Below, piece after piece: positions 14,730 through 32,169 of a DNA stretch of 64,000 nucleotides (positions within the stretch are counted from its first letter, which is position 1; each line of letters begins with the position of its first letter). Position numbers and translations under genes: made by a program. The DNA is taken from assembly GCA_963779755.1 (NCBI GenBank), contig CAVZZO010000001.1, forward strand, positions 352,001 through 416,000, written 5' to 3'. Origin of the DNA: an uncultured Gemmatimonadales bacterium. GTDB lineage: Bacteria > Gemmatimonadota > Gemmatimonadetes > Gemmatimonadales > GWC2-71-9. The notes beneath the pieces are model-generated. The model saw only the letters and a program-made list of their open reading frames with translations, was not told the origin of the DNA and ran no database searches.

Positions 14730-15458
14730 GTGACTGAACGCAAACGGCACCGCAGCCCCGACTTCAAGCGGCCCACCGAAGACGAGGCACTCCTCGAGAG
14801 CGAGCCATTCCGCCCCGACGCGCTGGTCAAGACCGATCCCTGGCGCGTGTTCCGGATCATGGGCGAATTCGTGGAGGGGTTCGACTCGCTGGCCGACGTC
14901 ATGGACGGGGTGGCGATCTTCGGTTCCGCGCGGACGGCGGCATCCGACCCGCACTATGACGCGGCTGTGGAAACCGCGCGGCTGCTGGCCGAGGCCGACT
15001 TCCCCATCATCACCGGGGGCGGCCCCGGCATCATGGAGGCGTCCAACAAGGGGGCGCTGGAGGGGGACGGGCTCTCCATCGGGTGCAATATCGAGCTGCC
15101 CTTCGAGCAGGGCACGAACCCCTACGTCCGTCGCAGCATCAACTTCCGCTTCTTCTTCGTGCGAAAGATGATGTTCGCGAAATACTCCATCGGGTTCGTG
15201 GTGTTCCCCGGCGGCTTCGGCACGATGGATGAGCTGTTCGAGGCCCTGACGCTCATCCAGACCGGCAAGATGAAGCACTTCCCGGTGGTGCTCTTCGGCA
15301 GCCGTTACTGGAGCGGCCTGCTGGACTGGTTGCGGAACACGGTGGCGAATGAGGGAAAGGTGGATCATCGCGACCTGGACCTTTTCCAGGTGACGGACGA
15401 TCCGAAAGAAGTCGCGCGTATCATGATCGAAGCCCGCAAGGCGCCCTCGGGCGACTGA
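14730..15458 (+). CDS. LOG family nucleotide monophosphate nucleosidase (Rossmann fold)
   Basis: [36 protein letters not shown]. Confidence 0.92.
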
Positions 15459-15493
15459 CGGGCCGGCCCTCCACCCTCTTCTACTCTCCCATC

Positions 15494-16633
15494 ATGGAAT
15501 CCAGGGCCTCTTATCTGCGTGGCCGCCGGATCAACCCGGCGCCGCTCACCGGCGGGGAAACGGTCGCCGACCTGGTCGACCAGGCGTTTCTGGCCTACAA
15601 CGCGGGGCGCCTGCGGGAGGGTTGCCAGCTATTCGCCGAACGGATGCTGGCGCCCGAAGTGACGGTAGGGATGAGCCTCACCGGAGCGATGACCCCCGCG
15701 GGGCTGGGGATGAGCTGTCTCATTCCCCTGATGGAAGCCGGTTTCGTGGACTGGATCATCTCCACGGGCGCGAACCTCTATCACGACGCGCATTTCGGCC
15801 TGGGGCTCGCCATGCACCAGGGAACACCGCATGTGGACGACGTGGAACTGCGCGATGCGGGAGTCGTGCGGATCTACGACGTGTTTTTCGACTATTCCGT
15901 GCTGCTCAGCACCGACGCCTTCATGCGCGAGATCTCGGCGCTGGAGGAATTCCAGCGTCCCATGAGTACGGCGGAGTATCACTACCGGCTGGGCGGCTAT
16001 GTGCTGGAGCGGGAGAAGGCGCTGAAGCTCACGCGCCGTTCGGTGCTGGCGGCGGCGCACCAGCTGGGCGTGCCGATCTATACCAGCTCACCGGGCGACA
16101 GCTCCATCGGGATGAATGTGGCGGAGCTGGCGCTGGGCGGGCACGCGTTGCGGTTCGACGTCAGCGCCGACGTGAACGAGACCGCGGCGATCGTGCTCGA
16201 CGCCAAGCGCTCGGGCGGGCTGAGCGGGTGTCTTATCGTAGGCGGCGGCAGCCCCAAGAACTTTCTCCTCCAGACGGAACCGCAGATCCAGGAAGTGCTG
16301 GGCATCGACGAGAAGGGCCACGACTATTTCCTGCAGCTGACCGATGCGCGCCCCGACACGGGCGGCCTTTCCGGCGCCACCCCGGCCGAGGCGGTGAGCT
16401 GGGGCAAGATCGATCCCTCCAAGCTCCCCAGCACGGTGGTCTGCTATACCGACAACACCATCGCCCTGCCGATCCTCACCGCGTACGCGCTGAGCCGCCG
16501 GGCCCCGCGCCCGCTCAAGCGGCTGTATGAGCGGCGGGGTGAGTTGATGCAGCGGCTGGAGAAGGAGTACCAGGCTGCGCGCGATTTCCGGGACCAGCGC
16601 GCGCGTGAGGCCCAGGGCCCGGGCAGCCGATGA
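15494..16633 (+). CDS. Deoxyhypusine synthase-like protein (possible homospermidine synthase)
   Basis: [38 protein letters not shown]. Confidence 0.9.
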
Positions 16634-18152: not shown

Positions 18153-18196
18153 AGCGGCCGGCAGGGGCGCGGCATGCCGCGCCCCTACCGGCCGCT
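18153..18196. repeat. REP-like palindrome between convergent genes
   Basis: Perfect 24-bp AGGGGCGCGGCATGCCGCGCCCCT core, extended by AGCGGCCGG/CCGGCCGCT. Confidence 0.8.
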
Positions 18197-18562
18197 CCGC
18201 TCCATCAGCTGCAGCAGCTCGCGGTACATGGCTTCGGCCTGGTCCGGGTCGCCGGAGCGGATGGCCTGGGTGGCGCAATGCCGGAGGTGGTTCTGCAGCA
18301 GCGCGCGGGACACACTGCGGAGCGCCTCCTGTACCGAGGCCACCTGGGTCACCACGTCGGTGCAGTAGCGCTCTTCCTCGACCATTCGCTGCAGCCCGCG
18401 CACCTGGCCCTCGATGCGCTTCAGCCGGTTCTGCACCGACCGTTTCAGCGCCGGATCGACTCCCACGGCATGTTCCCCGTCGCCCGGGCGGACGCCGCAG
18501 GCGCAGGCGGCGCTCGTACTGGCCAGATCTCCCCGGCGGGTTCCGTTACTGTTCGCGTTCAT
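18185..18562 (-). CDS. csoR: CsoR/RcnR family metal-sensing repressor
   Basis: NRLKRIEGQVRGLQRMVEEERYC..HLRHC (C-H-C Cu ligands); in the copZA operon. Confidence 0.92.
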   Translation of the reverse strand: MNANSNGTRRGDLASTSAACACGVRPGDGEHAVGVDPALKRSVQNRLKRIEGQVRGLQRMVEEERYCTDVVTQVASVQEALRSVSRALLQNHLRHCATQAIRSGDPDQAEAMYRELLQLMERSGR

Positions 18563-18577
18563 GTGCTCTCCACTGGA

Positions 18578-18652
18578 AGGAATCGGGAATCGGGAGTCAG
18601 GGTGTGGTGCTGTCCCTGAATCCCGACTCCTGATTCCTGATTCCTGATTCCT
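18578..18652. repeat. Inverted heptamer arrays (GGAATCR / YGATTCC) between copA and csoR
   Basis: AGGAATCGGGAATCGGGAGTCAGGG ... CCCGACTCCTGATTCCTGATTCCTGATTCCT. Confidence 0.85.
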
Positions 18653-18655
18653 CCC

Positions 18656-20980
18656 TCAGGCACTTCTCAATCTCAACGAGTTGGACACCACGCTGACGCT
18701 GCTCACCGCCATGGCGGCGGCGGCCATGGCCGGCGAGAGCAGCAGGCCGAGCGCGGGATAGAGGATGCCCGCCGCCACCGGGATGCCGACCACGTTGTAG
18801 ATGAAGGCCCAGAAGAGGTTCTGCCGGATGACCCGCAGAGTCTGCCGGGCCAGCCGGATGGCCCGTTCCACCCCGCGCAGGTCGCCCTGCATCAGGGTGA
18901 TGGCGCCGGTTTCCATGGCGACGTCGGTTCCGGTGCCCATGGCAATACCGACATCGGCCTGGGCCAGCGCCGGGGCGTCGTTGATCCCGTCGCCCACCAT
19001 GGCCACGACGAGGCCCGACTCCTGGAGCCGTTTCACTTCGCGCAACTTGTCCTGCGGCAGCACTTCTGCGATGACCCGATCGGCTCCGATCTCGCGTCCG
19101 ACCGCCTGGCCAGTGGCCCCGCTGTCGCCGGTGAGGAGAATGACCTGGAGCCCGAGCGCGTGCATCCGCTCCACCGCCTCCCGGCTGGTGGGCTTTATGG
19201 GGTCGGCCACGCCGAGAATGCCGATCAGCTTCCCCGCGCGGGCGACATAGACCGGGGTGCTGGCGCTGGCCGCCAGCCGGTCGGTATCGGCGGCGGTGGC
19301 AGGATCCACGCCGTGTTCCCGCATGAGGGCGGCGTTGCCAACCATGATTACGTCGCCGCCCACCTTACCGCCGACACCCTGCCCGGGATAGAGCGTGAAG
19401 TCGCGGGCGGGAGGGAGGCTGATCCCGTCATGCTCGGCGGCGCGGACGATCGCTTCGGCCAGGGGGTGTTCGCTCAGCCGGTCCACCGCGGCGGCGGCGG
19501 CGAGCAACTCGGGCGCGGCAATCCCGTACGGCAGCACGCTGGTCACGGCCGGCTTGCCCTGGGTGACCGTCCCGGTCTTGTCGAGCACGACGACGTCTAT
19601 CTGAGTCGTGCGCTCCAGTACCTCGCCGCCCTTGATGAGCACGCCCAGCTCCGCGCCGCGGCCGGTCGAAACCATGACGGCCGTCGGCACCGCCAGCCCC
19701 ATGGCGCAGGGGCAGGCGATGATGAGCACGGTGACGGCGGCGATCAGGGCATGCAGGTAGTTCGGCCCCGGGCCGAAGTCGTACCAGATGACGAAGGTGG
19801 CGATCGCCAGGGACATCACGACGGGCACGAACACGGCGGCGATGCGGTCGGCCAGCCGCTGGATGGGAGCCTTGGAGCCCTGGGCCTCCTGCACCAGCTG
19901 CACGATGCGTGACAGCATGGTGTCGGCCCCCACGCGGGCGGCCTGGAAGCGGAAGGCCCCGTTGCCGTTGAGCGTGCCGCCGACCACCTGTGCGCCCGGC
20001 TCCTTGCGCACCGGCATGGGCTCGCCGGTGAGCATGGATTCGTCCACGCTGCTGGTGCCTTCGGTCACCACGCCGTCCACCGGAATCCGCTCCCCCGGCC
20101 GTACCAGGATGAGATCGCCCACCCGGAGCGTTTCGACGGCGACGTCGATCTCCCGGCCATCGCGCACTACGCGGGCCGTGGTGGGCCGGAGGCCGATCAG
20201 CCGCCGGATGGCCCCAGACGTCCGCCCCTTGGCGGTGGCCTCCAGCAGGTTGCCCAGCAGAATGAGCGCGATGATCCAGACCACGGCCTCGTAGTACACC
20301 TGGGGGGTCACGCCGTGGGCCGCGAACCAGCCTGCCCCCAGCGTCATCGCCGCGCTGAAGAGAAACGCCGCGCCGGTGCCGACCGCGATGAGGGTGTTCA
20401 TGTCGGCGCTGTGGTGGCGGAACGCCGCCCAGGCCCGGACGTAGAAATGCCGGCCCGCCCAGAACACTACCGGCAGCGTGACGCCCAGCAGCACCAGCCG
20501 CAGCACTTCTGGGGGGAGTGCAAAGACGGCGGGGAAGACGCCCTCGAGCCAGCGGCCGACCGGCATCATGAGCCGCATCAGGGGATCGGCCGTGCCGCCC
20601 TCGGACTGCATGAGCGGTATGGACAGCAGCATGGTCAGCACCGCCGCCACCGCGCTCACGATGAGCTTGCGGCGGAGGAGGGTGATCTCGCGCGCGCGTT
20701 CCTCGTCCTGTTCGGCGACCCGCGCTTCCGGTGTGCTCGCTCCGGCCGGCACGGAGGATTCGTAGCCGGTATCCCGGATGGCGCCGACCAGCTGCTCGGG
20801 GGTTACGACCGCGGGGTCGTAACTGACCGTCGCCGAGCCGGTCATCAGGTTGACGTTGGCGGAAACGACGCCGGAGGACTTCTCCAGGGCACGCTGCACC
20901 CGGGCGCTGCAGGCGGCGCAGGTCATGCCGCCGACGGGCAGGGTGCAGGTCTCGGGGGTGGGCGTCAGCGTGGAGCTCAT
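18656..20980 (-). CDS. copA: Cu(I)-translocating P1B-type ATPase
   Basis: GMTCAAC HMA domain, [29 protein letters not shown]. Confidence 0.96.
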
Positions 20981-20987
20981 CAGGGGA

Positions 20988-21107
20988 CTAATGGTGAGGC
21001 GTGAGGGGTGAGGCGTGGTTCTGCCGATGGGTTCCCAGGAAATACCAGAGAACCCAGGTGATCAGGGCGACCCCGGCCAGCGTGACGATAATGCGGTCCA
21101 GGCTCAT
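20988..21107 (-). CDS. 39-aa single-TM peptide between copZ and copA (not in ORF track)
   Basis: [42 protein letters not shown] overlaps copZ TGA and the stop lies 7 nt before the copA ATG. Confidence 0.7.
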
Positions 21108-21319
21108 GACTGGCTCAGGGGGAGGGCGTTGTAGCCGACTTCATTCAGGGAGTTGCAGATGGCTTCGATGCTGGTCTGTGACTCGTCGAAGGCTACTTCC
21201 GCCTGGCCCAGCTTGACGCTCTTCGTCTGGACTCCGGGCATCGCGGCCAAGGTCTTGTTGACGGTATTGAGGCAGTGCCCGCAGCTCATGCCCTGGATAT
21301 GAAGCACCAGTTCCTTCAT
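21104..21319 (-). CDS. copZ: Copper chaperone CopZ (HMA domain)
   Basis: 71 aa, IQGMSCGHC. Confidence 0.92.
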   Translation of the reverse strand: MKELVLHIQGMSCGHCLNTVNKTLAAMPGVQTKSVKLGQAEVAFDESQTSIEAICNSLNEVGYNALPLSQS

Positions 21320-21457: not shown

Positions 21458-22303
21458 TCAATCCGCGGCGGCGAGGCTCGCGGCGTCCGGCGCGCGGCTG
21501 CTCAGCCGCCGGCCGATATAGGCCAGCAGCAGCAGCAGGCCGAACATGCAGACGATGACCGGCCCGGTGGGGAGATCGTACCGGAAGGAGAAAGCCAGCC
21601 CGCCCGCCGAGGCGACCAGGCCGGTGAGCCAGCTGAGCGCGACCAGGACCCGCTGGCTGCGGCTGAATTGGAACGCCACGGCGGCCGGCACCACCAGGAA
21701 GGAGAACACCAGGAGCACGCCGGCGATGGGGACGGAGAAGGTGATCACGATGCCGAAGGAGAGATAGAAGAGGAAGTCCCACCAGCGGATGCGCCACCCC
21801 AGGCCCAGGGCTTTCTCCGGCTCGAAGGAGATGGTGAGGAAGCGGCGGCGCAGGGCAAAATGGAACAGCCCCAGCGCGGCGTAAATGATGGCCAAACGGA
21901 TGATGGTGGGCCAGGTGACCCAGAGGAGGCTGCCGACCAGGATGTCCTTGATGGCCTCGCTGCCGCGCGGTGCCTTGTCGGCGACGAGTATGGCGGCGGC
22001 GGAGGCCACGACATAGACGATGCCGATGATGGCCTCCTGCGGCACCCGGCCCCGTTCGTGGGTGCGGGTCAGGCTGAAGATGAGTGCGCCGATGGAGGTA
22101 AAGGCCAGGGCGTAGATGAAGGCGGTGGTGGAATCGGGCATGGCGCCGGCCAGCACCGCCACCGTCGAGCCCAGCGCCGCCATCTGCGCCAGGGAGAGAT
22201 CCACGAAGATCACCTCCCGGGCAATGATGTGGAGGCCCAGATAGGCGTGGATCGCCACGATCACCATGCAGGCCACCAGGGGCGGCAGGATCAGGTCGAG
22301 CAT
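21458..22303 (-). CDS. Zn/Mn ABC transporter permease (ZnuB-like)
   Basis: IFVDLSLAQMAALG, EAIIGIVY, GVLLVFSFLVVPAA, DLPTGP. Confidence 0.85.
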   Translation of the reverse strand: MLDLILPPLVACMVIVAIHAYLGLHIIAREVIFVDLSLAQMAALGSTVAVLAGAMPDSTTAFIYALAFTSIGALIFSLTRTHERGRVPQEAIIGIVYVVASAAAILVADKAPRGSEAIKDILVGSLLWVTWPTIIRLAIIYAALGLFHFALRRRFLTISFEPEKALGLGWRIRWWDFLFYLSFGIVITFSVPIAGVLLVFSFLVVPAAVAFQFSRSQRVLVALSWLTGLVASAGGLAFSFRYDLPTGPVIVCMFGLLLLLAYIGRRLSSRAPDAASLAAAD

Positions 22304-22333
22304 CGAGGGTCCTTTCGGGGAGCGGGCGGCCGG

Positions 22334-23380
22334 CTACTTGAATACGGCGGTGAGGCCGTTGACCCAGGTATTGACCAGATCGAAATAGGTGTCGACGCCG
22401 GGCGCGCCCTGGGTGTTCTCGGGGACGATGACGGCCGTGGCACCGGTCTTCTGCGCCACCTGCTCGACGGCGCTCCGCGGGTAGTAGTTGGCGGAGAACA
22501 GCGCGGGAATATGGCGCGCCTGCATCAGGCTGATCACCTCCCGGACGTGCCTCGGCGTGGGCGGGATGCCCGGTTTCGGCTCGACGAAGGCGATGCAGGG
22601 AATGCCGAACCGGTCGCTGAAGTACACCCATTCCCGGTGGTAGCAGACCATTTCCTTCCCCCGCAGGATTTCCGTCTGCTTCAGCCAGCCGCCCAGCCGG
22701 TCGCTCAGCGGCCTGCCCTGGTACTGCTTGCCGCCCACGAAATCGAGAAACTTGTCGCTTCGCAGCAGGTCGAGCGTGGTCTCCGGGGTCAGCAGCTGCA
22801 CCAGATCGGAGCCGACCGTGGCCTCCAGAACCCGGCGCTCAAAATCCTTTTCACGCTGGGTGAAGAACCCGGCGTCCGCCGGTGCGATCCGCTGCAGGCC
22901 GGTGAGGATGTTCCGGGCGATGATGATGCCGTTGACCGGGTCGGTGTGAATGTGCGGGTTGCCCTCGGCGTGGATATCCCCCTGCGAACGATCGGTGGAC
23001 GTGGGGATCTCCAGCAGGTGGATGCCGGTGTAGGCCGTCACATACCCGGGGCCGCCCTCGATGACCTTGCGGTTGTTGGCCCGGTCGAGCAGCGGCGGGA
23101 CCCAGAGCTCAAGATCGAGCCCGGTGGTGACGAACAGGTCTGCGTTGCGCAGAATGGCAACGAAACTCGGCTTGGGCTGAACGAAATGCGGATCCTCGTC
23201 TCCCTGGGCGATGGCGGTGACCGTGCCGCGATCGCCCACGATCTCCCGGGCAATGGCGGCGTAGGTGGTGAGGCTGGTGACGACCCGGAGCGGGGCTTTT
23301 CTGGAGTGGGCAGAGGGGGCGGAGTCGGCGCTCATCAGCCCGATCGTCGTCGCGGCCGCCAGCAATGTCTGAAGTAGCAT
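22334..23380 (-). CDS. Zn/Mn ABC transporter substrate-binding protein (cluster A-I)
   Basis: DEDPHFVQPKPS, GDIHAEGNPHI, YH, EPKPGIPPTPRH. Confidence 0.9.
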   Translation of the reverse strand: MLLQTLLAAATTIGLMSADSAPSAHSRKAPLRVVTSLTTYAAIAREIVGDRGTVTAIAQGDEDPHFVQPKPSFVAILRNADLFVTTGLDLELWVPPLLDRANNRKVIEGGPGYVTAYTGIHLLEIPTSTDRSQGDIHAEGNPHIHTDPVNGIIIARNILTGLQRIAPADAGFFTQREKDFERRVLEATVGSDLVQLLTPETTLDLLRSDKFLDFVGGKQYQGRPLSDRLGGWLKQTEILRGKEMVCYHREWVYFSDRFGIPCIAFVEPKPGIPPTPRHVREVISLMQARHIPALFSANYYPRSAVEQVAQKTGATAVIVPENTQGAPGVDTYFDLVNTWVNGLTAVFK

Positions 23381-23411
23381 GTCGCTCTCCTGAAATACGG
23401 CCCGGGGGCCG

Positions 23412-24806
23412 TCAGTAGGTCTCGTGCTTGTGGGGACCCATGGCCCAGACGACCTGGAGCGTCAGGGTGTTGTCCGATGAGCCGTCCTGCATGCGGTGGT
23501 GCTGCCCCTGCAGGCGGAGGTAGACGAATTCGCTTTCCCACCAGGTAATGACCGGGGTGAGCATCCATTCGTCGGCATAGGGGCCGCGGGGTGCCTCGAC
23601 GTAATCGTACCGGGCGCCCAGGACCCAGCGCTGCCCGGCCCTGGCCTGCACGTCGGCGAACATGCCATAGCGGCTGCTGCGCGCCCCCGCCTCGCGGGCG
23701 TGCAGGCGGTACCCCTCCAGGCGCAGCGTCACATCACGCCGCGTTCCCGCCTCGGGGGGGCGCCAGGTGAACCGGAAGTCGGCGCCGAGAATGTTGCTGG
23801 TGAGGCTGCTGTCGCGGTTGCTGCCGACGGCGCCGGTGAAGCCCAGCTGGGCGTAGCTGCTGCGGGAGAGTTGCCAGAAGTTCTGCAGCCGAGCGAGTCC
23901 CACGGGCTGTGCGCTGCCGGCCAGGAAGGGGTCGCTGGCGGTGGTGGTACCCTGCAGCCACAACTCGTGCGCACCGCCGGCCAGGGACAGTGGCAGCAGG
24001 CTGTAGACCGAGATGCCGACCCCGGCCAGGCCCTCCGAGCCGAAGAACCGCTGATACACCAGCGGGTATTCGGTCTCCGGCAGAGCGTGCAGATGCCAGC
24101 GGTTGAGGTCTCCCACCTCCTGGCGGAACTTGCCGACGTCCAGCCGCAGCTTGCCGGGAAGGCCGGACCAGTAGATGTAGCCTTCCTCCACCCCGACTTC
24201 GTCCTGCTCGAAGGTGAGGAAGACCTTGGTGTTGGAATAGGGATCGAGAGAAGATTGAAAGGCCAGCTCGAACTCCCGCGCGTCGAAGTTGTTCCGCTGC
24301 ACCCCGCGGTCTTTGGCCGAGATGCGGATATCGCCGGTGGCGCTGATCTCCGGATTGAAGCTGTTGAGATTGCGCTGCTTGCTCACGAACTGAGTGCCGC
24401 GGGCCCCCGCATCGCCGCGGGCGGCCGGCTGCGCCGCTGCATCCCCGGCCGCCCCGGCGGCGGCGGCGCGCAGGGCCGCCAGGTCATCCGCCCCGCCGGT
24501 GTCGGCGGCAAGCGAGGGCGCGGCGGGAGCACAACGGGCTTGTTGCAGCCGGGCAACCCGGTCGCGCAGGCGGCGCAGCGCCGAGCTCATCGAGTCGGTG
24601 GCGGCATCGCCGGTGGGGCCCGGCAGCTTGAGCTGCAGAGGACCCCGGGGACAGCTGCCGGCGTCGAGTGAATCGAGCCGGGCCTGGAGCTGCTCTACGC
24701 CGTGCCGGAGGGAGTCGAGTCCGGCGGCGGGTTGCTGGGCCTGCAGCGCGGGTGCGGCGCCACTCAGCAGTGCCGCCAGCGCCAGAACGCCTGATGATGT
24801 ACGCAT
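23412..24806 (-). CDS. Outer-membrane beta-barrel/porin of the type associated with Zn ABC uptake
   Basis: Signal peptide, coiled coil, FNPEIS, REFELAFQSSLDPY, NRWHLHAL, C-terminal MGPHKHETY. Confidence 0.72.
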   Translation of the reverse strand: MRTSSGVLALAALLSGAAPALQAQQPAAGLDSLRHGVEQLQARLDSLDAGSCPRGPLQLKLPGPTGDAATDSMSSALRRLRDRVARLQQARCAPAAPSLAADTGGADDLAALRAAAAGAAGDAAAQPAARGDAGARGTQFVSKQRNLNSFNPEISATGDIRISAKDRGVQRNNFDAREFELAFQSSLDPYSNTKVFLTFEQDEVGVEEGYIYWSGLPGKLRLDVGKFRQEVGDLNRWHLHALPETEYPLVYQRFFGSEGLAGVGISVYSLLPLSLAGGAHELWLQGTTTASDPFLAGSAQPVGLARLQNFWQLSRSSYAQLGFTGAVGSNRDSSLTSNILGADFRFTWRPPEAGTRRDVTLRLEGYRLHAREAGARSSRYGMFADVQARAGQRWVLGARYDYVEAPRGPYADEWMLTPVITWWESEFVYLRLQGQHHRMQDGSSDNTLTLQVVWAMGPHKHETY

Positions 24807-24946
24807 GTTGTCTCCCAGCCTGTGCGGAGTCCCCCGCAAGCGTCTTTGCGGAGCTCCCGCGCTTCGTCATCCCGGCGGTTCCTGCCGGTGCATTTCCACC
24901 GCCGCGCCTCTCTGGCGACGGGGGTGGAGGGGCTGCAGATGTCGAG

Positions 24947-25297
24947 TCAGACCAGGAAGGAGGGAGGGGCTCGGGAGAGGGTACTGGTATGGATCGTGAC
25001 CCCCGACCACCAGATGATCTCCGGGGAAGTGATCGGGAGGATACGCGTTTCGGGGAGGACGATGGCCCCGGAGGCCACCTGCCAGACGTGACGGGGGACG
25101 GACCACGCCAGGCCGAGGAGACAGCGCTCGGCGTGGCAGCCGCCCTCGTCGGACGATTCGAAGTGCGGACCGACGGCCTGTTCGGCGTGGCCCCGATGGT
25201 GGGCGAAGGCGTCGAACACCGGCACGCCCAGACTGCTGCCGACGAAGGCCAGCAGGAGGAGCAGGGCGAGGGCGCGGCGAGCCGAGCGGAAGCGCAT
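24947..25297 (-). CDS. Secreted His/Cys leader protein with C-terminal RAPP motif (DUF2946/CruR-like)
   Basis: 116 aa: signal-like N-terminus, AHH..PH..CHAERC, ends LSRAPPSFLV; paralog at 31110..31448. Confidence 0.78.
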   Translation of the reverse strand: MRFRSARRALALLLLLAFVGSSLGVPVFDAFAHHRGHAEQAVGPHFESSDEGGCHAERCLLGLAWSVPRHVWQVASGAIVLPETRILPITSPEIIWWSGVTIHTSTLSRAPPSFLV

Positions 25298-25380: not shown

Positions 25381-28300
25381 TCAGACCTCCAGCCGGTCGC
25401 CGTCGCGGGCGACCACGGCATAGAGCGCGGGCATCAGCAGCACACTGATGAAGAGCCGGGAGAAGAGACCGCCGACGATCACCAGGGCAAAGGGCTTCTG
25501 CGAGTCCGATCCCACGCCGGTAGAGAGCGCCGCCGGCAGCAGGCCGAAAGCCGCCACCAGTGCCGTCATCATGATGGGCCGGAGCCGGAGCACGGCGGCG
25601 GTGCGGGTGGCTTCGGCGATACTGGAACCGGCCCGGCGCAGCTCGTTGGCGTAGGAGATGTAGACCACCGCGGTCTGCACCGAGACGCCGAAGAGGGCGA
25701 GGAAGCCGATCCCCGAGGACACCGAGAAGGGAGTCCCGGTCACCGCCAGTGCCACCAGGCCGCCGATGGGGGCGGAGAGCACGACGCCGGCCACGGTAAT
25801 GAAGGGAAACTTGAAATTGCTGTAGAGCGCAAACAACAAGAGGAAGATGATGAACAGGGTCAGCGGCACGATGATGCGGAGCTGGTGGCGTGAGCTGGTG
25901 TATTCCTGGTACTCGCCACCCCAGACTACCCGATACCCGGCGGGCAGATGGACGGTGGAGGTCACCTGTCGCTGGGCGTCCTGCACCGCGCCGGCCAGGT
26001 CGCGGCCTTCGACCGAGTACTGTACCCCGATGAACCGGGCGTTATCCTGGCGGTAGATGAACGAGGCTCCGTTGGAGAGCGCAATGGTCGCCAGCTCCTT
26101 GAGCGGGACCTGCGCCCCGCCCGGCGTGGCCACGAGAATGTTGCCGATCTCCTCAGGCGTCTGCCGGAAGCGCGGCTGGAGGCGGACCACCAGGTCGAAG
26201 GTCCGCTCTCCCTGCACCACGCCGGTAGCCGACACCCCGCCCACCGCCGCTTCGATGAGGCCGTTGATGTCATCCACGCCCAGGCCATACCGGGCGATCT
26301 TCGAGCGGTCCACCTGGATCGTCAGGCTGGGCTGGCCCAGCTCCTGGACCAGGGTGACGTGGCGGATGCCGTGCACCCGCTGGAGCACATTGCGGATCTG
26401 CTGCCCCTCGGTCTGCAGCGTGTCGAGGTTGGGACCGAACACCTTGACGTCCAGGGCGCTCTTGAGGCCGGTCTCGGCTTCGTCCACCGCATCCTCGGCG
26501 GGCTGGGTGTAGTTGAAGATGATACCGGGAAATTGCCGCAGCCGCTGATTGATGTCGTCGATCAGCTGGGCCTTGGTGTGGATCTTCCCCTGCCATTCAC
26601 CGTACGGCTTCAGCCCGACGTAGAACTCGGCGTTGAAGAAGCCGGTGGGATCGGTGCCGTCGTCGGGCCGGCCGTGCTCGGATGCGACCACGGTCACCTG
26701 GGGATAGGAGCGGAGAATGGCGCGAATCCGCGGAACGATCTGCGACGATTCTTCGAAGGAAATCGTGTACGGCATGGTGGCGCGAACCCAGAGCGCTCCC
26801 TCATCCAGGTGAGGCATGAACTCCGCGCCGATCAGGGGCAGCAGGAGCAGCGAGAGGGCGAAGATCGCCACCGAGCCGCCGATGGCGGGCCAGCGGTGCG
26901 CCAGGGTCCAGTCGAGCGAGCGTTCGTACGAGCGGCGCAGTGCCTCATAGAACGGGTTCCGCCGCTCCCGCACGCCGTGGCGCAGAATCCAGGAGCAGAG
27001 CACGGGCACCAGGGTCAGGGTGAGCAGCAGCGAGCCGATCAGCGCGAAGATCGTGGTGTCGGCCATGGGGCGGAAGAGCTGGCCCGAGGGACCCTTCAGC
27101 ACGTAGATAGGCAGGAAACCGGCAATGATGACCGCCACGGCATAGAAGATGGGCCGGTCCACCTCGGCGGCGGCCGCCGCGATGACCTCACGCAGGCGAT
27201 ACTGGGTGCCGTACCTGAGGGCGAGCTGGCGGTGGATGTTTTCCACCATCACTACCGCGCCGTCCACCAGGATGCCGAAGTCTATCGCGCCGATGGAAAG
27301 CAGGTTGGCCGGAATGTGCCGCAGGTCCAGGCAGATGAAGGCGAAGAGCAGGGCGATGGGTATGGTCACCGCCACGATCAATCCGCTCCGGATGTCATAG
27401 AGGAAAAGGATCAGCACGGCGATGACCAGGCTGATCCCCCGCAGCAGGTTGTCTTCCACCGTGCGGGTGGTGAGTGCGATCAGGTCGCTGCGGTCGTAGA
27501 ACGGATGGATCTTCACATCCTTCGGCAGAATGTGCTCGTTCAGTTCGCGGGTCTTCGCCTCCACCTGCTTGAGCACGGTCTGGGCCTGCTCGCCTTTCCG
27601 GAGCAGGATGACGCCTTCGACGGCATCGTTCTGCGCGTTGTAGCCGAACTGCCCCAGGCGCGGGGCATGGCCGATCACCACGCTGCCGATGTCCTTGACC
27701 AGCACGGGCGTGCCGTTGTGGACCGCGAGCACGGTGTTGCCGATGTCGTCCAGGGTGTTGAGCCGCCCCAGGCCGCGCACGTAGTAGAACTGGCCGCCCT
27801 CGGAGTAGAACCCGCCGCCGGCGTTGCTGTTGCCCTTGCCCAGGGCATCCACGACGTCGCTCACCGCCAGCCCGGCGGCCGCCAGGCGGGTCGGGTCGAT
27901 CTGGACCTGGTACTGCATGGTCTCGCCGCCCAGCGGGGAATCGTCGGCCACACCGGGGACCGACCGGTACTGCCGCACGATGACCCAGTCGTTCAGCACC
28001 TTGAGGTCCATCGCCGTCCGGTCGGGACTCTGCAGCACGTAGCGGTAGACCAGGCCCGAGGGAGAGAAGAGCGGCGATACGCCGGGGGCGACACCATCGG
28101 GCAGCTCCGCATCGGGCAGGCGTTCGAAGACCTGTTCCCGGGCGAAGTAGTTGTCGGTGCCGTCCTCGAAGGTGAGCCGGATGTTGGAGAGGCCGTAGAG
28201 CGAGATGGACCGGATGACCCGCAGGTGGGGCAGCCCGTTCATCTCGACTTCAAGCGGCACGGTGATGAGGCGTTCCACCTCCTCCGCGGCGTGGCCCGGC

Positions 28301-28497
28301 CACTGGGTGGTGATCTCCACCATCGGGGGAGAGAGATCGGGATAGGCGTCCACCGGCAGCCGGGTGAAGGACCAGATGCCCCCGCCGATCAGAATGAGCG
28401 CGCAGAGCACGACCAGGAACCGCTGATTCAGGCTGGTCCCGACGATCCGGTGAATGAACGAGGTGGCCGGCGGCGTCCCGGCGGGGCTCCCGGTCAC
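25381..28497 (-). CDS. CusA/CzcA family heavy-metal efflux RND permease
   Basis: LPVDAYPD, EEVERLIT.PLE, GAIDFGILVDGAVVMVEN, RLRPIMMTALVA; 1038 aa. Confidence 0.95.
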   Translation of the reverse strand: MTGSPAGTPPATSFIHRIVGTSLNQRFLVVLCALILIGGGIWSFTRLPVDAYPDLSPPMVEITTQWPGHAAEEVERLITVPLEVEMNGLPHLRVIRSISLYGLSNIRLTFEDGTDNYFAREQVFERLPDAELPDGVAPGVSPLFSPSGLVYRYVLQSPDRTAMDLKVLNDWVIVRQYRSVPGVADDSPLGGETMQYQVQIDPTRLAAAGLAVSDVVDALGKGNSNAGGGFYSEGGQFYYVRGLGRLNTLDDIGNTVLAVHNGTPVLVKDIGSVVIGHAPRLGQFGYNAQNDAVEGVILLRKGEQAQTVLKQVEAKTRELNEHILPKDVKIHPFYDRSDLIALTTRTVEDNLLRGISLVIAVLILFLYDIRSGLIVAVTIPIALLFAFICLDLRHIPANLLSIGAIDFGILVDGAVVMVENIHRQLALRYGTQYRLREVIAAAAAEVDRPIFYAVAVIIAGFLPIYVLKGPSGQLFRPMADTTIFALIGSLLLTLTLVPVLCSWILRHGVRERRNPFYEALRRSYERSLDWTLAHRWPAIGGSVAIFALSLLLLPLIGAEFMPHLDEGALWVRATMPYTISFEESSQIVPRIRAILRSYPQVTVVASEHGRPDDGTDPTGFFNAEFYVGLKPYGEWQGKIHTKAQLIDDINQRLRQFPGIIFNYTQPAEDAVDEAETGLKSALDVKVFGPNLDTLQTEGQQIRNVLQRVHGIRHVTLVQELGQPSLTIQVDRSKIARYGLGVDDINGLIEAAVGGVSATGVVQGERTFDLVVRLQPRFRQTPEEIGNILVATPGGAQVPLKELATIALSNGASFIYRQDNARFIGVQYSVEGRDLAGAVQDAQRQVTSTVHLPAGYRVVWGGEYQEYTSSRHQLRIIVPLTLFIIFLLLFALYSNFKFPFITVAGVVLSAPIGGLVALAVTGTPFSVSSGIGFLALFGVSVQTAVVYISYANELRRAGSSIAEATRTAAVLRLRPIMMTALVAAFGLLPAALSTGVGSDSQKPFALVIVGGLFSRLFISVLLMPALYAVVARDGDRLEV

Positions 28498-29627
28498 TGG
28501 TTCTCCGCGAACCGCAGAAACAGTCCGCCCTCGGCCACGATGCGCTCGCCCGGCGCCAGGCCGGAGGTGATTTCGTAGCTGTCATCCACGTGCGAACCGA
28601 GGGTGATCTGGCGGCGCTCGAAGCCTTTTCCTGAATCGGCCACAAACAGGAACGGCAGGTTATTCTCGTCGCGCTGCACCGCCGAGGCGGGCACCAGAAT
28701 GCCCCGGCGGCCGTGACGCGAGTAGATGGTGACACGGACGAACATATCGCGCTTGAGGACATCGCCAGGGTTGGGCGTCAGGATCCGGACAGAGGTCGCC
28801 CGGGTGTCCGGGTCTACCAGCGAGGCGACGTAGGTGACGCGCCCGGGGAAGACGCGGTTGTCGTCGGTGGGGCTGATGCTGGCCGAGTCGCCTTCGGTCA
28901 CGTCGGGCAGGTCGGATTCGAAGACGTTGGCCATGACCCAGACGGTGCCCAGGTCGGCAATGGTGAAGCAGGGTGTGGCGCCGCTCTCCAGCAGCTGGCC
29001 CGGGGTGATGAGCTTCTCCACCACCACCCCGGCGATGGGCGCGCGGATCACGGCCTGGGCGGCCTCGACCGCACGTCCCTGGCGGATGTCTTCGATGGTG
29101 GCGGAGTCGACGCCGAGCGAGCGCAGCTGCTCCCGTGCGGCATCCCGGTCGGCGGCGGCCGAGGCGGCGTCCGTCTGGGCCTGTTCCAGATCCCGCCGCG
29201 CCAAGGCGTCGGTGTCGAAGAGTTTCTGGTCAAGGTCGGCGATGTGCTGGGCGTTGTGCGCGGCCACCACCGCCTTGCGGTAGTCGGCGATGGCAGTGGC
29301 AAAGTCAGGGGACGCGACCACCGCCAGGGCCTGGCCCGCCGCCACGTGGGCGCCCGGCTGGACCAGGATACGTACCACCGGGCCCGAGATGGGCGCGAGT
29401 ACCTGCGTGCTGCGGTCGCCGTTGAAGGCCACGGTGCCGGTGACCGTGACGGACGGCTGAAAGGCCACGGGGGCAACCGGCGTGATCCGGAGCTGGTGGC
29501 GCTGGGCCGGAGTGAGAACGAACTCCGAATCGGCCGCGCCGTCGCCGCCGGCCGGCTCGGCACGGTGGCAGGCGCCCGCCAGCAGCAGGCAAGCGAGGGC
29601 GGCAAGAGCCCCGATCCTAGTGGTCAT
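28494..29627 (-). CDS. RND efflux periplasmic adaptor (CzcB-like lipoprotein)
   Basis: Lipobox LAGAC, IRAPIAGVV, IADLGTVWV.ANVFESD, SGLAPGERIV. Confidence 0.9.
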   Translation of the reverse strand: MTTRIGALAALACLLLAGACHRAEPAGGDGAADSEFVLTPAQRHQLRITPVAPVAFQPSVTVTGTVAFNGDRSTQVLAPISGPVVRILVQPGAHVAAGQALAVVASPDFATAIADYRKAVVAAHNAQHIADLDQKLFDTDALARRDLEQAQTDAASAAADRDAAREQLRSLGVDSATIEDIRQGRAVEAAQAVIRAPIAGVVVEKLITPGQLLESGATPCFTIADLGTVWVMANVFESDLPDVTEGDSASISPTDDNRVFPGRVTYVASLVDPDTRATSVRILTPNPGDVLKRDMFVRVTIYSRHGRRGILVPASAVQRDENNLPFLFVADSGKGFERRQITLGSHVDDSYEITSGLAPGERIVAEGGLFLRFAENQ

Positions 29628-30939
29628 GCTGTTCTCCAGACGAGACGGTATCGAGCGGAGCGCCAATCGCGCGCTCCAGGTCGGCGCGGGCATCGTTGGC
29701 GGCGCCCAGGGCTTCGGCATACTGGCTTTTGGCGTCGAGCATGGTGCGACGGGCATCCAGCACCTCCAGGCTGGAGGACCCTCCCAGCCCGTAACTCTGG
29801 AGCGCGATCTGATAGGCACGGGTGGCTTCCGGCAGCAGCTCGTCACGCAGGTACACTGCCTGAGCGAGCGCGGTGGCGGCCGTGGCATAGGTGGCGCGGA
29901 CATCCTGCTCCACCTGGGCTTCGAGGTCGCGGTAGGTGGCCGCCAGCTCCTGCTCGTGGTGTTTCGATTCGGCAACCTCTCCGCCGATATGATTCCAGAA
30001 GAAGAGCGGGAGGGTGAACCCGATCGACGTGGTGTAGCTGTTGGGGGCTCCGCTCACCACGTTCTTTTCGACGCTGACACCCAGGTCGGGAACCCAGAAC
30101 TCCTTGGCCAGCGAGGTGGCCGCGGCGGCCCCGGAGCGGACGCGGGCCAGCCCCTGCAACTCGGGACGGTCGCGCAGGGCAATGCCGACCAGCAGGGACA
30201 GCTCCGGCAGGCTGTCGGGGACGCTCAGGGTATCGGTGGTGGCGATGCCGCCACCTACCGTGCGGCCGAGGAGACGATTGAGGTTGGCCCGGGCGGTGGC
30301 GAGGTCACGCTGGTTGGCCAGCAGGTTGTTGGCGGCCTGGGCGACATCTACCCGCGCCTTGATGACGTCGAGGCGCGGCACGGTGCCTCCCTCGAAGCGC
30401 GCCTCGGTCTTCTTCAGAAAATCCTCCGCCAGCGCCTTGCCCTCCTCCAGATCCGACTGGTGCTGCAGCGCGACCAGAATGGCGTCATAGGTCTGCGCCG
30501 TCGCCGAGGTCATCTGCTGCACCAGCTGGACGTAGGCGAATTCGGTGCTGCCCACCTCCGCCCGGCCGATCCGGCCCAGGAGCAGGAACTTGGAGGGAAA
30601 GGGCAGGGTCAATCCGACGCTGACGTCGCTGCCGGTCCGGGTGCCGGGCTGGAAGGGCTTGGCCAGCCCGGCGTAGTCGCCCGCGATCTGGGGATCGGGA
30701 AAGGCGGTGAGCTGGACCTTCCGGGCCCGGGCCTGGGCGATCTGCTGCCGCGCTGCCTCGAGCGCCGGGTTGTGGGCCAGCACGCTGTCGATCGCCTGCT
30801 GCCGGGTCAGGGCCAGGGCGCCCGGCGCCCCGCTCTGGGCGCGGGCGGACCTGCCCACCACCACACTGCAGCCGAGTACGATCGCCAGGCCGCGCAGTCG
30901 TCTGAAGCCGGGGATCAGGTATCCCCGTTGGTGTCTCAT
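29617..30939 (-). CDS. TolC/CzcC family outer membrane efflux protein
   Basis: Two TolC repeats, LEVLDARR, ARADLERAIG. Confidence 0.9.
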   Translation of the reverse strand: MRHQRGYLIPGFRRLRGLAIVLGCSVVVGRSARAQSGAPGALALTRQQAIDSVLAHNPALEAARQQIAQARARKVQLTAFPDPQIAGDYAGLAKPFQPGTRTGSDVSVGLTLPFPSKFLLLGRIGRAEVGSTEFAYVQLVQQMTSATAQTYDAILVALQHQSDLEEGKALAEDFLKKTEARFEGGTVPRLDVIKARVDVAQAANNLLANQRDLATARANLNRLLGRTVGGGIATTDTLSVPDSLPELSLLVGIALRDRPELQGLARVRSGAAAATSLAKEFWVPDLGVSVEKNVVSGAPNSYTTSIGFTLPLFFWNHIGGEVAESKHHEQELAATYRDLEAQVEQDVRATYATAATALAQAVYLRDELLPEATRAYQIALQSYGLGGSSSLEVLDARRTMLDAKSQYAEALGAANDARADLERAIGAPLDTVSSGEQHDH

Positions 30940-31615: not shown

Positions 31616-31855
31616 ATGTTAGCCCGTATTTCAAAGTGGGGAAACAGTTTAGCTGTGCGGATCCCCCGTGCCTTCGCCGCCGAGCTGGGCATTCAGGAGG
31701 GTGTGGAGGTGGAGATGTCCGTGGAGGACGGCCGCCTGGTGATCGCGCCGGCCCGGCCGGAGTACGGACTGGAAGAGCTGAGCGCCGGGATCACGCCGGA
31801 AAACCGCCACGATGAAACCGACTGGGGCCGCCCCACCGGTGGTGAGGTGTGGTGA
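31616..31855 (+). CDS. mazE: MazE/AbrB-family antitoxin
   Basis: KWGNSLAVRIP ... ITPENRHDETDWG.PTGGEVW. Confidence 0.93.
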   Translation: MLARISKWGNSLAVRIPRAFAAELGIQEGVEVEMSVEDGRLVIAPARPEYGLEELSAGITPENRHDETDWGRPTGGEVW

Positions 31856-32169
31856 CTCCCGACCGGGGAGACCTGGTATGGATCAGCACCGAGCCCCGGG
31901 ATGGGGGTCCCGTGTCCCGCCGACCCGCGCTGGTCGTTTCTCCGGCGCGGTATAATGAACGCTCCGGCCTGGCGCTTATGTGCGCCATCGCCAGCCGGGT
32001 GAAGGGCTATCCCTTCGAGGTGAGGTTACCCGACGGGCTACCGGTGGCCGGCGTGGTGTTGTCGGATCATCTACGCAGCACCGATTGGCGGGCACGCGAG
32101 GCGGAGATCATCGCTCGCGTTCCCGATCGCGTCACGGGAGAGGTTCTGGCCAAGCTCAAGCCGCTATGA
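31849..32169 (+). CDS. mazF: MazF/PemK-family toxin, degenerate active site
   Basis: PDRGDLVW, RRPALVVSP, KGYPFEV, DWRAR. Confidence 0.88.
   Translation: MVTPDRGDLVWISTEPRDGGPVSRRPALVVSPARYNERSGLALMCAIASRVKGYPFEVRLPDGLPVAGVVLSDHLRSTDWRAREAEIIARVPDRVTGEVLAKLKPL

Follow-up and report, generated by a model that had tools for sequence, protein, structure and literature searches.

The subject of this analysis is a small gene, P0001, within a 64,000-nucleotide (nt) stretch of DNA from an uncultured Gemmatimonadales bacterium (assembly GCA_963779755.1, contig CAVZZO010000001.1), which we call the window. P0001 directly precedes the genes of a predicted outer-membrane porin, a zinc-type ZnuA homolog and an ABC-3 permease, and is very likely a regulatory arrest leader of the CruR/CutF type, predicted to stall the ribosome at a C-terminal RAPP motif. 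Leaders of this kind are already known, and P0001 is probably a zinc-linked cousin of the copper-sensing ones. Taken as a whole, the picture of an arrest leader that gates its operon by unmasking a Shine-Dalgarno (SD) sequence is one that we consider reasonably probable. A preliminary description, prepared from the DNA alone, had proposed an RAPP leader at the head of a Zn/Mn import operon, and every inferential step in it that computation could check, namely the tail, the kinship, the ligands, the position, the porin and the pairing, has held.

The preliminary description had recorded a 116-residue open reading frame (ORF) with a signal-like N-terminus, a His/Cys cluster and a terminal SRAPP, 140 nt from the next gene. 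Translation returns all of these as described, and the distance is exact (Table 1). The product, MRFRSARRALALLLLLAFVGSSLG..AHHRGHAEQAVGPHFESSDEGGCHAERC..SRAPPSFLV, reads MRFRSARRALALLLLLAFVGSSLGVPVFDAFAHHRGHAEQAVGPHFESSDEGGCHAERCLLGL...TLSRAPPSFLV and has behind its basic n-region (R2, R4, R7 and R8) a hydrophobic stretch, ALALLLLLAFVGSSLG, of at least 12 residues; from a reading of the sequence, codons 1-24 are a candidate export signal or N-in membrane anchor. A candidate metal-sensing segment and a spacer then lead to the RAPP motif, after which four codons (SFLV) remain before the stop. An AlphaFold2 model computed from the family alignment A2 described below (mean predicted local distance difference test score, pLDDT, 76.5; predicted template modelling score, pTM, 0.36) consists of a helix over residues 2-34 (pLDDT 83-94), a loop, a short helix at 55-65 and nothing regular from 66 onward. 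The predicted stall geometry, in which P111 occupies the P site and P112 the A site, is transferred from the toeprint of CruR, whose arrest in vitro is reported to occur with the two Pro codons in these sites (PMC12992588). The leader profile hidden Markov model (HMM) recovers P0001 from its own 4.23-Mb genome at E 2.6e-56 and finds 2 copies only, P0001 and P0002, the latter being the paralog noted at the outset, which has 112 residues and is 42% identical to P0001.

P0001 belongs to a sizeable family. While a word-index search returned only two close relatives, a four-homolog profile run against 1.84 billion representative proteins gave 238 matches at E<=1e-3, nearly all of them 103-131 residues long (about 114 being typical) and aligned end to end. 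Genes of this kind, coding for 105-125 residues, are missed by Pfam and annotated as hypothetical; the profile recovers them in 154 of the 401 genomes of the phylum, and in 101 of 165 in the window's own family. Conservation of the tail, for which an HMM-based check had been suggested, is marked: R[AGSP]PP lies at most 8 residues from the C-terminus in 147 of 152 family proteins, the exceptions being P0065, P0093, P0129, P0131 and P0145. By a crude hydrophobic-run test, 129 of the 152 have an uncharged 12-residue stretch starting within the first 40 residues.

Alignment A2 comprises 143 of these 152 proteins, nine having been omitted for odd length or a missing tail (five of them tailless). 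Its invariant columns are C59, R109, P111 and P112; because tailless proteins were omitted, the invariance of the R and the two Ps is partly a product of selection, and 147/152 is the fair figure. Nearly invariant are D29 and H34 (141/143 each) and H55 (142/143), followed by H45 (125/143), and 119 rows have Glu or Asp at position 57. The conserved ligand set is therefore D/H/H/H/C, in agreement with the earlier view that a His-rich set stands in place of CxxC; the first Cys of CHAERC is a Cys in only 44/143 rows. The motif itself is RAPP in 128 rows, RSPP in 10, RGPP in 4 and RPPP in 1, and is followed by 1-7 residues (four in 82/143). Between the invariant Cys and the Arg the spacing is 46-49 residues in all 143 rows (48 in 109; 49 in P0001), and the spacer is at the same time the least conserved part of the protein, with a mean top-residue frequency of 0.23 versus 0.47 for residues 28-62.

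The preliminary description had also invoked kinship with DUF2946 (PF11162), the Pfam family of CruR and CutF, and this kinship is real but marginal. P0001 itself has no Pfam or NCBIfam match (for DUF2946, none at E<=1). P0002 scores 17.4 bits over profile positions 42-117, the C-terminal end of the profile included, where the gathering score is 23.7 bits, and in a six-frame search of the genome DUF2946 reaches 15.3 bits. Nine of the 143 family members match it at E<=0.01 (best 6.6e-4). Of the 401 genomes of the phylum, 77 contain a match to the DUF2946 model at E<=0.01 and 13 one that attains its cut-off, and several ORFs are picked up both by this model and by the leader profile, e.g. G172:C82 (23.1 bits), G254:C1 and G302:C20. 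Given these marginal and overlapping matches, the leader family is, by sequence comparison, a divergent offshoot on the margin of DUF2946, most of which escapes the curated model. Three DUF2946-type features are present, i.e. the C-terminal RAPP, the fixed Cys-RAPP spacing (1-4 residues longer than the 45 of CruR) and the first-in-operon position; two fail, the HMM score and the CXXC motif. Neither the CXXC of CruR nor the CXXXC of CutF is found in the window's leaders, P0001 having C-x4-C (CHAERC) and P0002 C-x6-C (CHNHAEHC), of which only the second Cys is invariant. We also considered the class of RAPP peptides that monitor Sec or YidC (ApdA, ApdP, SecM-like) and rejected it, the downstream genes being those of the porin, ZnuA and ZnuB, with no secA, secDF or yidC among them.

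Both leaders of the window head operons. The minus-strand gene order is P0002, czcC, czcB, czcA, an 83-nt gap, P0001, the porin-like gene, the ZnuA homolog, the permease and a copZ-copA-csoR unit, and the czcCBA heavy-metal resistance-nodulation-division (RND) efflux operon headed by P0002 occupies 25381..30939. The neighbourhood survey suggested by the preliminary description covered 40 neighbourhoods from 40 genomes together with the window, with downstream genes classified by tblastn with the window proteins and by Pfam. It yielded 60 leader matches, two of them from the window, of which 57 are tailed, and showed leaders before three types of operon: a TonB-dependent receptor-like gene follows in 35 cases, porin-ZnuA-ZnuB in 14 and czcCBA in 8. 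A CarboxypepD_reg domain is present in each of the 26 receptor candidates scanned, and a Plug or TonB barrel domain in 22. Tandem arrays are common, e.g. leader-porin-znuA-znuB-leader-receptor and leader-czcCBA-leader-receptor, and the next leader often begins within tens of bases of the last gene of the preceding operon. In a tree of the 57 leaders P0002 is sister to P0001 (support 98/91), and leaders from one genome tend to be sisters.

The claim that the leader heads a porin/ABC importer operon was likewise followed from the side of the porin, by keeping 80 loci out of 167 relatives, 79 of which come from metagenome-assembled genomes of Gemmatimonadales/Gemmatimonadota/Gemmatimonadetes. A leader is the first gene, at most 600 nt from the porin, in 55 of the 74 related porin-ZnuA-ZnuB loci having at least 500 nt upstream, and 54 of these 55 have the tail. 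In the remaining one, the leader of L153, the profile match ends at position 101 and the RAPP tail is missing; it is probably a broken copy.

The porin gene has an SD sequence (duplex with the 16S tail motif, -7.3 kcal/mol), and when the folded RNA begins 30 nt ahead of the Arg codon and extends 12 nt beyond the porin start, this SD pairs with the anti-SD arm at 24978-24968 with probabilities of 0.66-0.98. The arm lies directly 5' of the first half of RAPP and overlaps it, and excludes the two Pro codons. The preliminary description had taken the RAPP codons as complementary to GGGAG: as sequence, CCCCUCCCUCC is so, but the fold model pairs codons 107-110 and not the Pro codons. With P111 in the P site, the anti-SD bases are 1-11 nt upstream of the P-site codon, and the footprint of a stalled ribosome is large enough to cover them.

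Codon choice at the stall site is unusual throughout the family. Among the 57 leaders the first Pro codon is CCT in 29 (versus 6.8% of 6194 background Pro codons), the Ala codon of RAPP is GCT in 23 (background 5.2%) and its Arg codon CGA in 18 (background 8.0%). These rare codons yield GCUCCUCC-like strings. As a test of pairing we took the mean probability of base-pairing between the SD 5-mer and a zone that opens 9 nt ahead of the Arg codon and closes with the stop, the null being synonymous recoding in 40 replicates. For the 37 analysable pairs of the first sample (57 in all) this was 0.60 versus 0.24 for the recoded sequences, with a top replicate mean of 0.37; 25 pairs stand at 0.5 or above versus an average of 7.0 under the null (maximum 13), 31/37 lie above their own null mean, and the score of the window itself is 0.93. 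A porin-only sample (38 of 54 pairs analysable) gave 0.58 versus 0.24, and 0.535 versus 0.158 with 90 nt of upstream context. Complementarity of stall zone and downstream SD, noted at first for this one locus, is thus above the synonymous null in both samples. In the minimum-energy folds the place of the SD partner varies, ranging from codons that immediately precede RAPP to those that end the reading frame, which argues for a constraint on position rather than for inherited sequence. The fold energy of the region as a whole is unremarkable for both leaders (P0001, z -1.37; P0002, z -0.35).

Several observations weigh against the reading developed so far. In the window, pairing between the SD and the anti-SD arm has a probability of about 0.5 with 60 nt of upstream context and 0.98 with 90 nt, and from 150 nt of upstream context onward the SD changes its partner to GUCUCCUC, in codons C59-L61, with a probability of 0.98-1.0. 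The SD of the window is thus sequestered in these models in every context folded, but its partner, switching with context length, is ambiguous in silico. Likewise, 150 nt of upstream context weakens the signal of the first sample to 0.38 versus 0.12, and the window scores 0.0 in this long-context family test; by class, receptors then stand at 0.45 versus 0.08, porins at 0.34 versus 0.18 and the efflux-type (czcC) leaders at 0.17 versus 0.17, i.e. with no SD-pairing excess. In the fold of P0002 the stall zone pairs elsewhere and not with the czcC SD. From the two samples 20/57 and 16/54 pairs were dropped, no start with an SD being callable by the heuristic. Each SD was chosen as the 5-mer most like GGAGG, the sequences are related by descent and some genomes occur in both samples, and the comparison with replicates is therefore not a probability. 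GCA and CCA are also enriched in the porin sample, which an anti-SD alone does not predict; slowing at rare codons may contribute. On the side of gene context, 19 of the 74 porin loci retain porin-ZnuA-ZnuB without a leader (none within 1.5 kb upstream), among them L092, L093, L096, L097, L100 and 14 more. In the tree of 57 leaders operon type does not define clades, the 8 czcC rows requiring 8 label changes and the 14 porin rows 12; Cys spacing, C-x4-C versus C-x6-C, was tried as a marker and fails to separate the operon types. Lastly, one sensor before both an importer and an exporter is inexplicable by a single polarity. Either the coupling differs between them, Rho termination being the obvious candidate, or the stall responds differently.

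It is very improbable that P0001 is instead an ordinary small exported or anchored metal-binding protein, such as a metallochaperone or a transporter accessory, with RAPP as a structural or sorting motif. Its His/Cys/Asp set is conserved as in a genuine metal site, and transposon insertion into the DUF2946 gene that precedes czrCBA in Caulobacter is reported to cause cadmium sensitivity, which would suit a structural role or polarity (PMC3637150). Such a protein leaves unexplained why residues 60-108 are unconserved yet fixed in length and modelled without secondary structure, why its conserved tail coincides exactly with an arrest motif of proven function and has synonymous sites under selection, and why the gene always comes first, before three unrelated operon types.

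Granting an arrest leader, the coupling to the downstream genes could be transcriptional as in CruR, with the stalled ribosome blocking Rho and release leading to Rho termination in the 140-nt gap. According to PMC9426467 this is the sole coupling demonstrated by experiment for an RAPP-bearing DUF2946 leader, and it could also serve the czcCBA paralog, where SD masking is unseen. The gap is near the 162 bp of CruR in length, its first 30 nt are C-rich and its first 60 nt hold 25 C versus 17 G. Taken whole, however, it lacks the C-rich, G-poor composition sought for a Rho loading site (48 C, 49 G), and extensive structure is predicted for it; the gaps of the porin class, typically 76 nt (median; range 43-103), are short for Rho loading, and Rho coupling predicts neither the codon bias nor the SD-pairing excess. 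We thus hold it to be unlikely as the explanation here, though the two couplings could coexist, and for the porin-ZnuA-ZnuB operon type we regard SD unmasking as the probable one.

The proteins encoded downstream bear on the metal. The 464-residue product of the first gene has no Pfam or NCBIfam match; its profile against PDB sequences gave nothing meaningful (a single match at E 0.89), and the Atlas a lead only to Porin_O_P. An AlphaFold2 model from 12 sequences (mean pLDDT 66.8; 70-88 in the barrel part) has 17 strands of at least three residues between residues 153 and 456. Because its best structural matches in the PDB by Foldseek are all 16-strand porins (Vibrio OmpT, Omp32, chitoporin, OprP/OprO and OmpF; E 5e-7 to 1e-4, TM-score 0.45-0.56 on the target), we accept with moderate confidence the earlier assignment of this predicted fold to a porin. 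In the ZnuA homolog (nearest NCBIfam model AztC, 87 bits versus a cut-off of 350) the ligand His residues lie at PH, aligned with YfeA and with the laminin-binding protein of group A streptococci (3gi1), at NPH and at CYH, the last aligned with the His of 'tqH' in the laminin-binding protein, which we take to be zinc-binding. Three His ligands characterize the zinc-type cluster A-I binding proteins, the Mn/Fe types having Glu at the third position. Of the 'Zn/Mn' import originally proposed, the zinc-type part therefore stands, since the third ligand of the ZnuA homolog is a His, and the manganese part does not. No ABC ATPase gene is present in the porin-ZnuA-ZnuB units, either here (21458-24806) or in the relatives examined (L037-L058), and the ATPase for this importer must be encoded elsewhere or shared.

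On the efflux side, the CzcA translation carries DFGILVDGAVVMVEN, i.e. the DFGx3DGAx3VEN signature in transmembrane helix IV, and IDFGILVDGAVVMVEN, the HME1/HME2 motif, is visible in it; PMC3637150 gives DFGx3DGAx3VEN as the motif of the divalent-cation RND classes HME1 and HME2. By its sequence the czcA product is thus assigned to the HME1/HME2-type heavy-metal RND pumps (the CzcA, CnrA, NccA class). In relatives, the receptors have the heme-receptor/ZnuD group as their best match, at scores below cut-off. From this context the sensed ion would most likely be divalent, Zn(II) or else one such as Co, Ni or Cd, and we would put zinc as the signal slightly above an even chance. Tempering this, the neighbour metal assignments (AztC, AztB, CzcB/NccB and ZnuD) are all below equivalog cut-offs; and two Fur-family genes elsewhere in the genome could regulate zinc uptake, so that the leaders need not be the sole zinc control and a replacement of Zur cannot be argued.

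Copper would be the alternative suggested by both characterized relatives, CruR and CutF; His and Cys are ligands for Cu, the operon is directly followed by a copZ-copA-csoR unit, and the TonB receptors behind CruR homologs are reported to include copper receptors. Opposed to this are the ligand set, with no CXXC and a single invariant Cys beside an invariant Asp and three His, and the neighbours, i.e. a ZnuA with three His, a permease resembling AztB/ZnuB and a CzcA bearing the divalent-cation motif. Moreover the copper unit, next in order behind the ZnuB gene, comes with a CsoR-type repressor and a promoter-like site (21408-21380) of its own, the latter being the sole good sigma-70-like site in the block; the scan for sigma-70 sites and terminators found nothing adjoining either leader. 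Copper as the sensed metal accordingly seems to us quite unlikely.

The scheme that we infer, in its stalling, metal, direction and co-translational geometry alike, would run as follows. The N-terminal signal or anchor would bring the nascent chain to the Sec translocon. With the ribosome at R109-A110-P111-P112, C59 would be 49 residues behind the peptidyl-transferase centre, approximately the length of exit tunnel and translocon, so that the segment with D29, H34, H45, H55 and C59 would be just at the periplasmic side. RAPP would halt the ribosome with P111 in the P site. Because the SD pairs with the stall zone in the fold models, a ribosome stalled there should unmask the porin start: it would cover codons 107-110, freeing the SD, and the operon would be translated. 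Metal binding would fold the periplasmic segment and the pull on the chain would release the arrest; termination would come four codons on, the anti-SD:SD helix would re-form and uptake would be off. P0001 would thus combine the polarity of CruR with the coupling of CutF.

In this scheme metal relieves the stall rather than strengthening it, a direction that by analogy with CruR we regard as the probable one. The reverse, in which metal strengthens or prolongs the stall and the downstream genes are on with metal, is what CutF, also a DUF2946 protein, does for a detoxifying enzyme. It would suit the czcCBA paralog, and the leaders of exporters and importers are not separate clades. For a porin with a zinc-type importer, or for a TonB receptor, however, induction by metal excess would be harmful, and CruR, the precedent among uptake operons, has metal relieving the arrest; we therefore consider this reversal rather improbable for P0001. 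A broader proposal, which we put forward as speculative and doubtful, is that in Gemmatimonadales one interchangeable D/H/H/H/C plus RAPP sensor stands before uptake and efflux modules with the sign set by the following RNA and not by the sensor, making up a purely translational zinc homeostat that reads the periplasm. The modules, head to tail and possibly on one transcript, would use SD masking for importers and another coupling for the exporter, and would work beside or in place of transcription factors of the Zur/ZntR type.

Table 1. Coordinates of the leader, its RNA elements and neighbouring genes in the window
Feature	Position	Strand	Remarks
Leader ORF P0001	24947..25297	-	116 codons + stop; ATG 25297, TGA 24949-24947; translation
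Codons 1-24 of P0001	25226..25297	-	basic n-region and hydrophobic stretch; sequence reading
Candidate metal-sensing segment, codons 29-59	25121..25213	-	D29, H34, H45, H55, (E57), C59; C54 extra in the P0001 copy
Spacer, codons 60-108	24974..25120	-	sequence variable, length fixed
RAPP codons CGA GCC CCT CCC (R109-P112)	24962..24973	-	predicted stall site
Anti-SD arm UCUCCC(G)AGCC	24968..24978	-	codons L107-S108-R109-A110
Rival anti-SD-like segment (G)UCUCCUC	25115..25121	-	codons C59-L61; 145 nt upstream
Intergenic region, P0001 to porin (140 nt)	24807..24946	-	internal hairpins
SD region of porin gene, GGCUGGGAGA	24811..24820	-	GGGAG 24816-24812, 5 nt before ATG 24806
Outer-membrane porin-like protein, 464 residues	23412..24806	-	signal peptide, two long N-terminal helices, then beta-barrel (model)
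ZnuA-family metal-binding protein, zinc-type	22334..23380	-	Pfam ZnuA 7e-45
ABC-3 permease (ZnuB/AztB-like)	21458..22303	-	Pfam ABC-3 1.7e-33; NCBIfam AztB and ZnuB below cut-offs
copZ	21104..21319	-	separate copper unit 18188-21319
CopA-type P1B ATPase	18656..20980	-	copper unit
CsoR/RcnR-type repressor	18188..18562	-	copper unit
czcA	25381..28497	-	Pfam ACR_tran; TIGR00914 CusA/CzcA 897.5 bits vs cut-off 701
czcB	28494..29609	-	Pfam HlyD_D23
czcC	29617..30939	-	Pfam OEP
Paralogous leader P0002	31110..31448	-	112 residues, CHNHAEHC, ends SRAPPAV; RAPP codons 31130-31119

A few further genes deserve mention. One lineage has, behind the receptor gene that the leader heads, genes of secreted proteins resembling metalloproteases (L036 10828-13077, minus strand; L042 3386-5611, minus; L043 4449-6761, plus), those of L036 and L042 with a Peptidase_M6 domain and that of L043 with leishmanolysin-like Peptidase_M8 and Big domains; they may be zinc-scavenging or zinc-dependent accessories. 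Divergent from P0002 is a MazE antitoxin and PemK-MazF toxin pair (31616-32166, plus strand), and within the 167-nt region that the two share TGTCTATGTAGATACA forms an imperfect inverted repeat, a candidate operator. Elsewhere in the window a LOG/lysine-decarboxylase-like gene is followed by that of a deoxyhypusine synthase homolog (14730-16630, plus strand), an odd pairing for bacteria.

Among known systems the closest is CruR (Bp2923) of Bordetella pertussis, the prototype of DUF2946, for which PMC9426467 reports that the signal peptide, the CXXC, the 45-residue spacing and RAPP are all required, and that copper relieves the arrest, whereupon Rho terminates before the receptor gene. Like CruR, the members of the leader family are small, probably exported peptides that come first in metal-uptake operons, with few residues between RAPP and the stop, a Cys-containing sensor at a fixed distance from the C-terminal RAPP (45 residues in CruR, 46-49 here) and a weak but consistent profile similarity to it; the TonB receptor behind CruR is also the commonest partner of the family. 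In contrast to CruR, they have D/H/H/H/C without CXXC and zinc-type rather than copper-type neighbours, mostly short gaps (median 76 nt) with an anti-SD inside the stall zone in place of a 162-bp gap and Rho-dependent termination, and a home in Gemmatimonadota, the homologs of CruR having been reported mainly from Proteobacteria. CutF of Rhodobacter capsulatus (PMC9973294) resembles our proposal in being a co-translationally exported sensor whose C-terminal stall frees a downstream SD from an mRNA helix. According to the preprint (bioRxiv 10.1101/2025.02.05.636593), the stall near its C-terminus melts a stem-loop hiding the cutO SD and is promoted by copper. Unlike the leader family, CutF stalls at PPP, uses CXXXC and senses copper, and metal switches on a detoxifying oxidase; its masking stem-loop lies downstream of the leader, whereas in P0001 one arm is in the leader's own last codons.

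According to a 2025 survey by Chiba and colleagues (PMC12992588), RAPP/RGPP upstream ORFs occur ahead of TonB receptor genes in every Gram-negative phylum. These surveyed ORFs (see also ApdA/ApdP, PMC10951233 and PMC10987492) are mostly exported and, like the leader family, small, with RAPP near the C-terminus. The source table of Figure 4B of PMC12992588 lists, behind RAPP upstream ORFs, RND adaptor subunits (620), the TolC family (530), CusA/CzcA (50), carbohydrate porins (54) and a 'zinc-regulated TonB-dependent receptor'. In the main text of that paper zinc has 0 occurrences and neither ZnuA-type importers nor anti-SD coupling are described, and no CHAERC or GAHAEHC sequence occurs in the part of its supplementary file 8 that our search covered. 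The open PMC papers and bioRxiv preprints that our literature search covered describe no zinc-linked RAPP leader, no D/H/H/H/C family and no anti-SD in stall codons.

A further precedent comes from Caulobacter crescentus, where the DUF2946 gene CC2720/CCNA_02805 is reported to be co-transcribed with czrCBA, 57 bp before it. This Cd/Zn RND efflux operon is described as having no regulator gene nearby and as being cadmium-induced from a promoter upstream of CC2720 (PMC4176598, PMC3637150). The layout is the same as that of P0002 and czcCBA, the differences being that CC2720 is proteobacterial, is a true Pfam DUF2946 member and was never read as an arrest leader. Nascent-chain sensing across the membrane has so far been demonstrated only for copper, in two proteobacterial leaders. 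If the reading proposed here is true, the principle would extend to a divalent metal, probably zinc, to another ligand chemistry and another phylum, and to uptake as well as efflux operons, and the design would be a compact one in which the stall codons are themselves the anti-SD. The twin leaders of the window, mutual closest relatives of which one precedes an exporter and the other an importer, pose the question of how the sign of such a switch is set.

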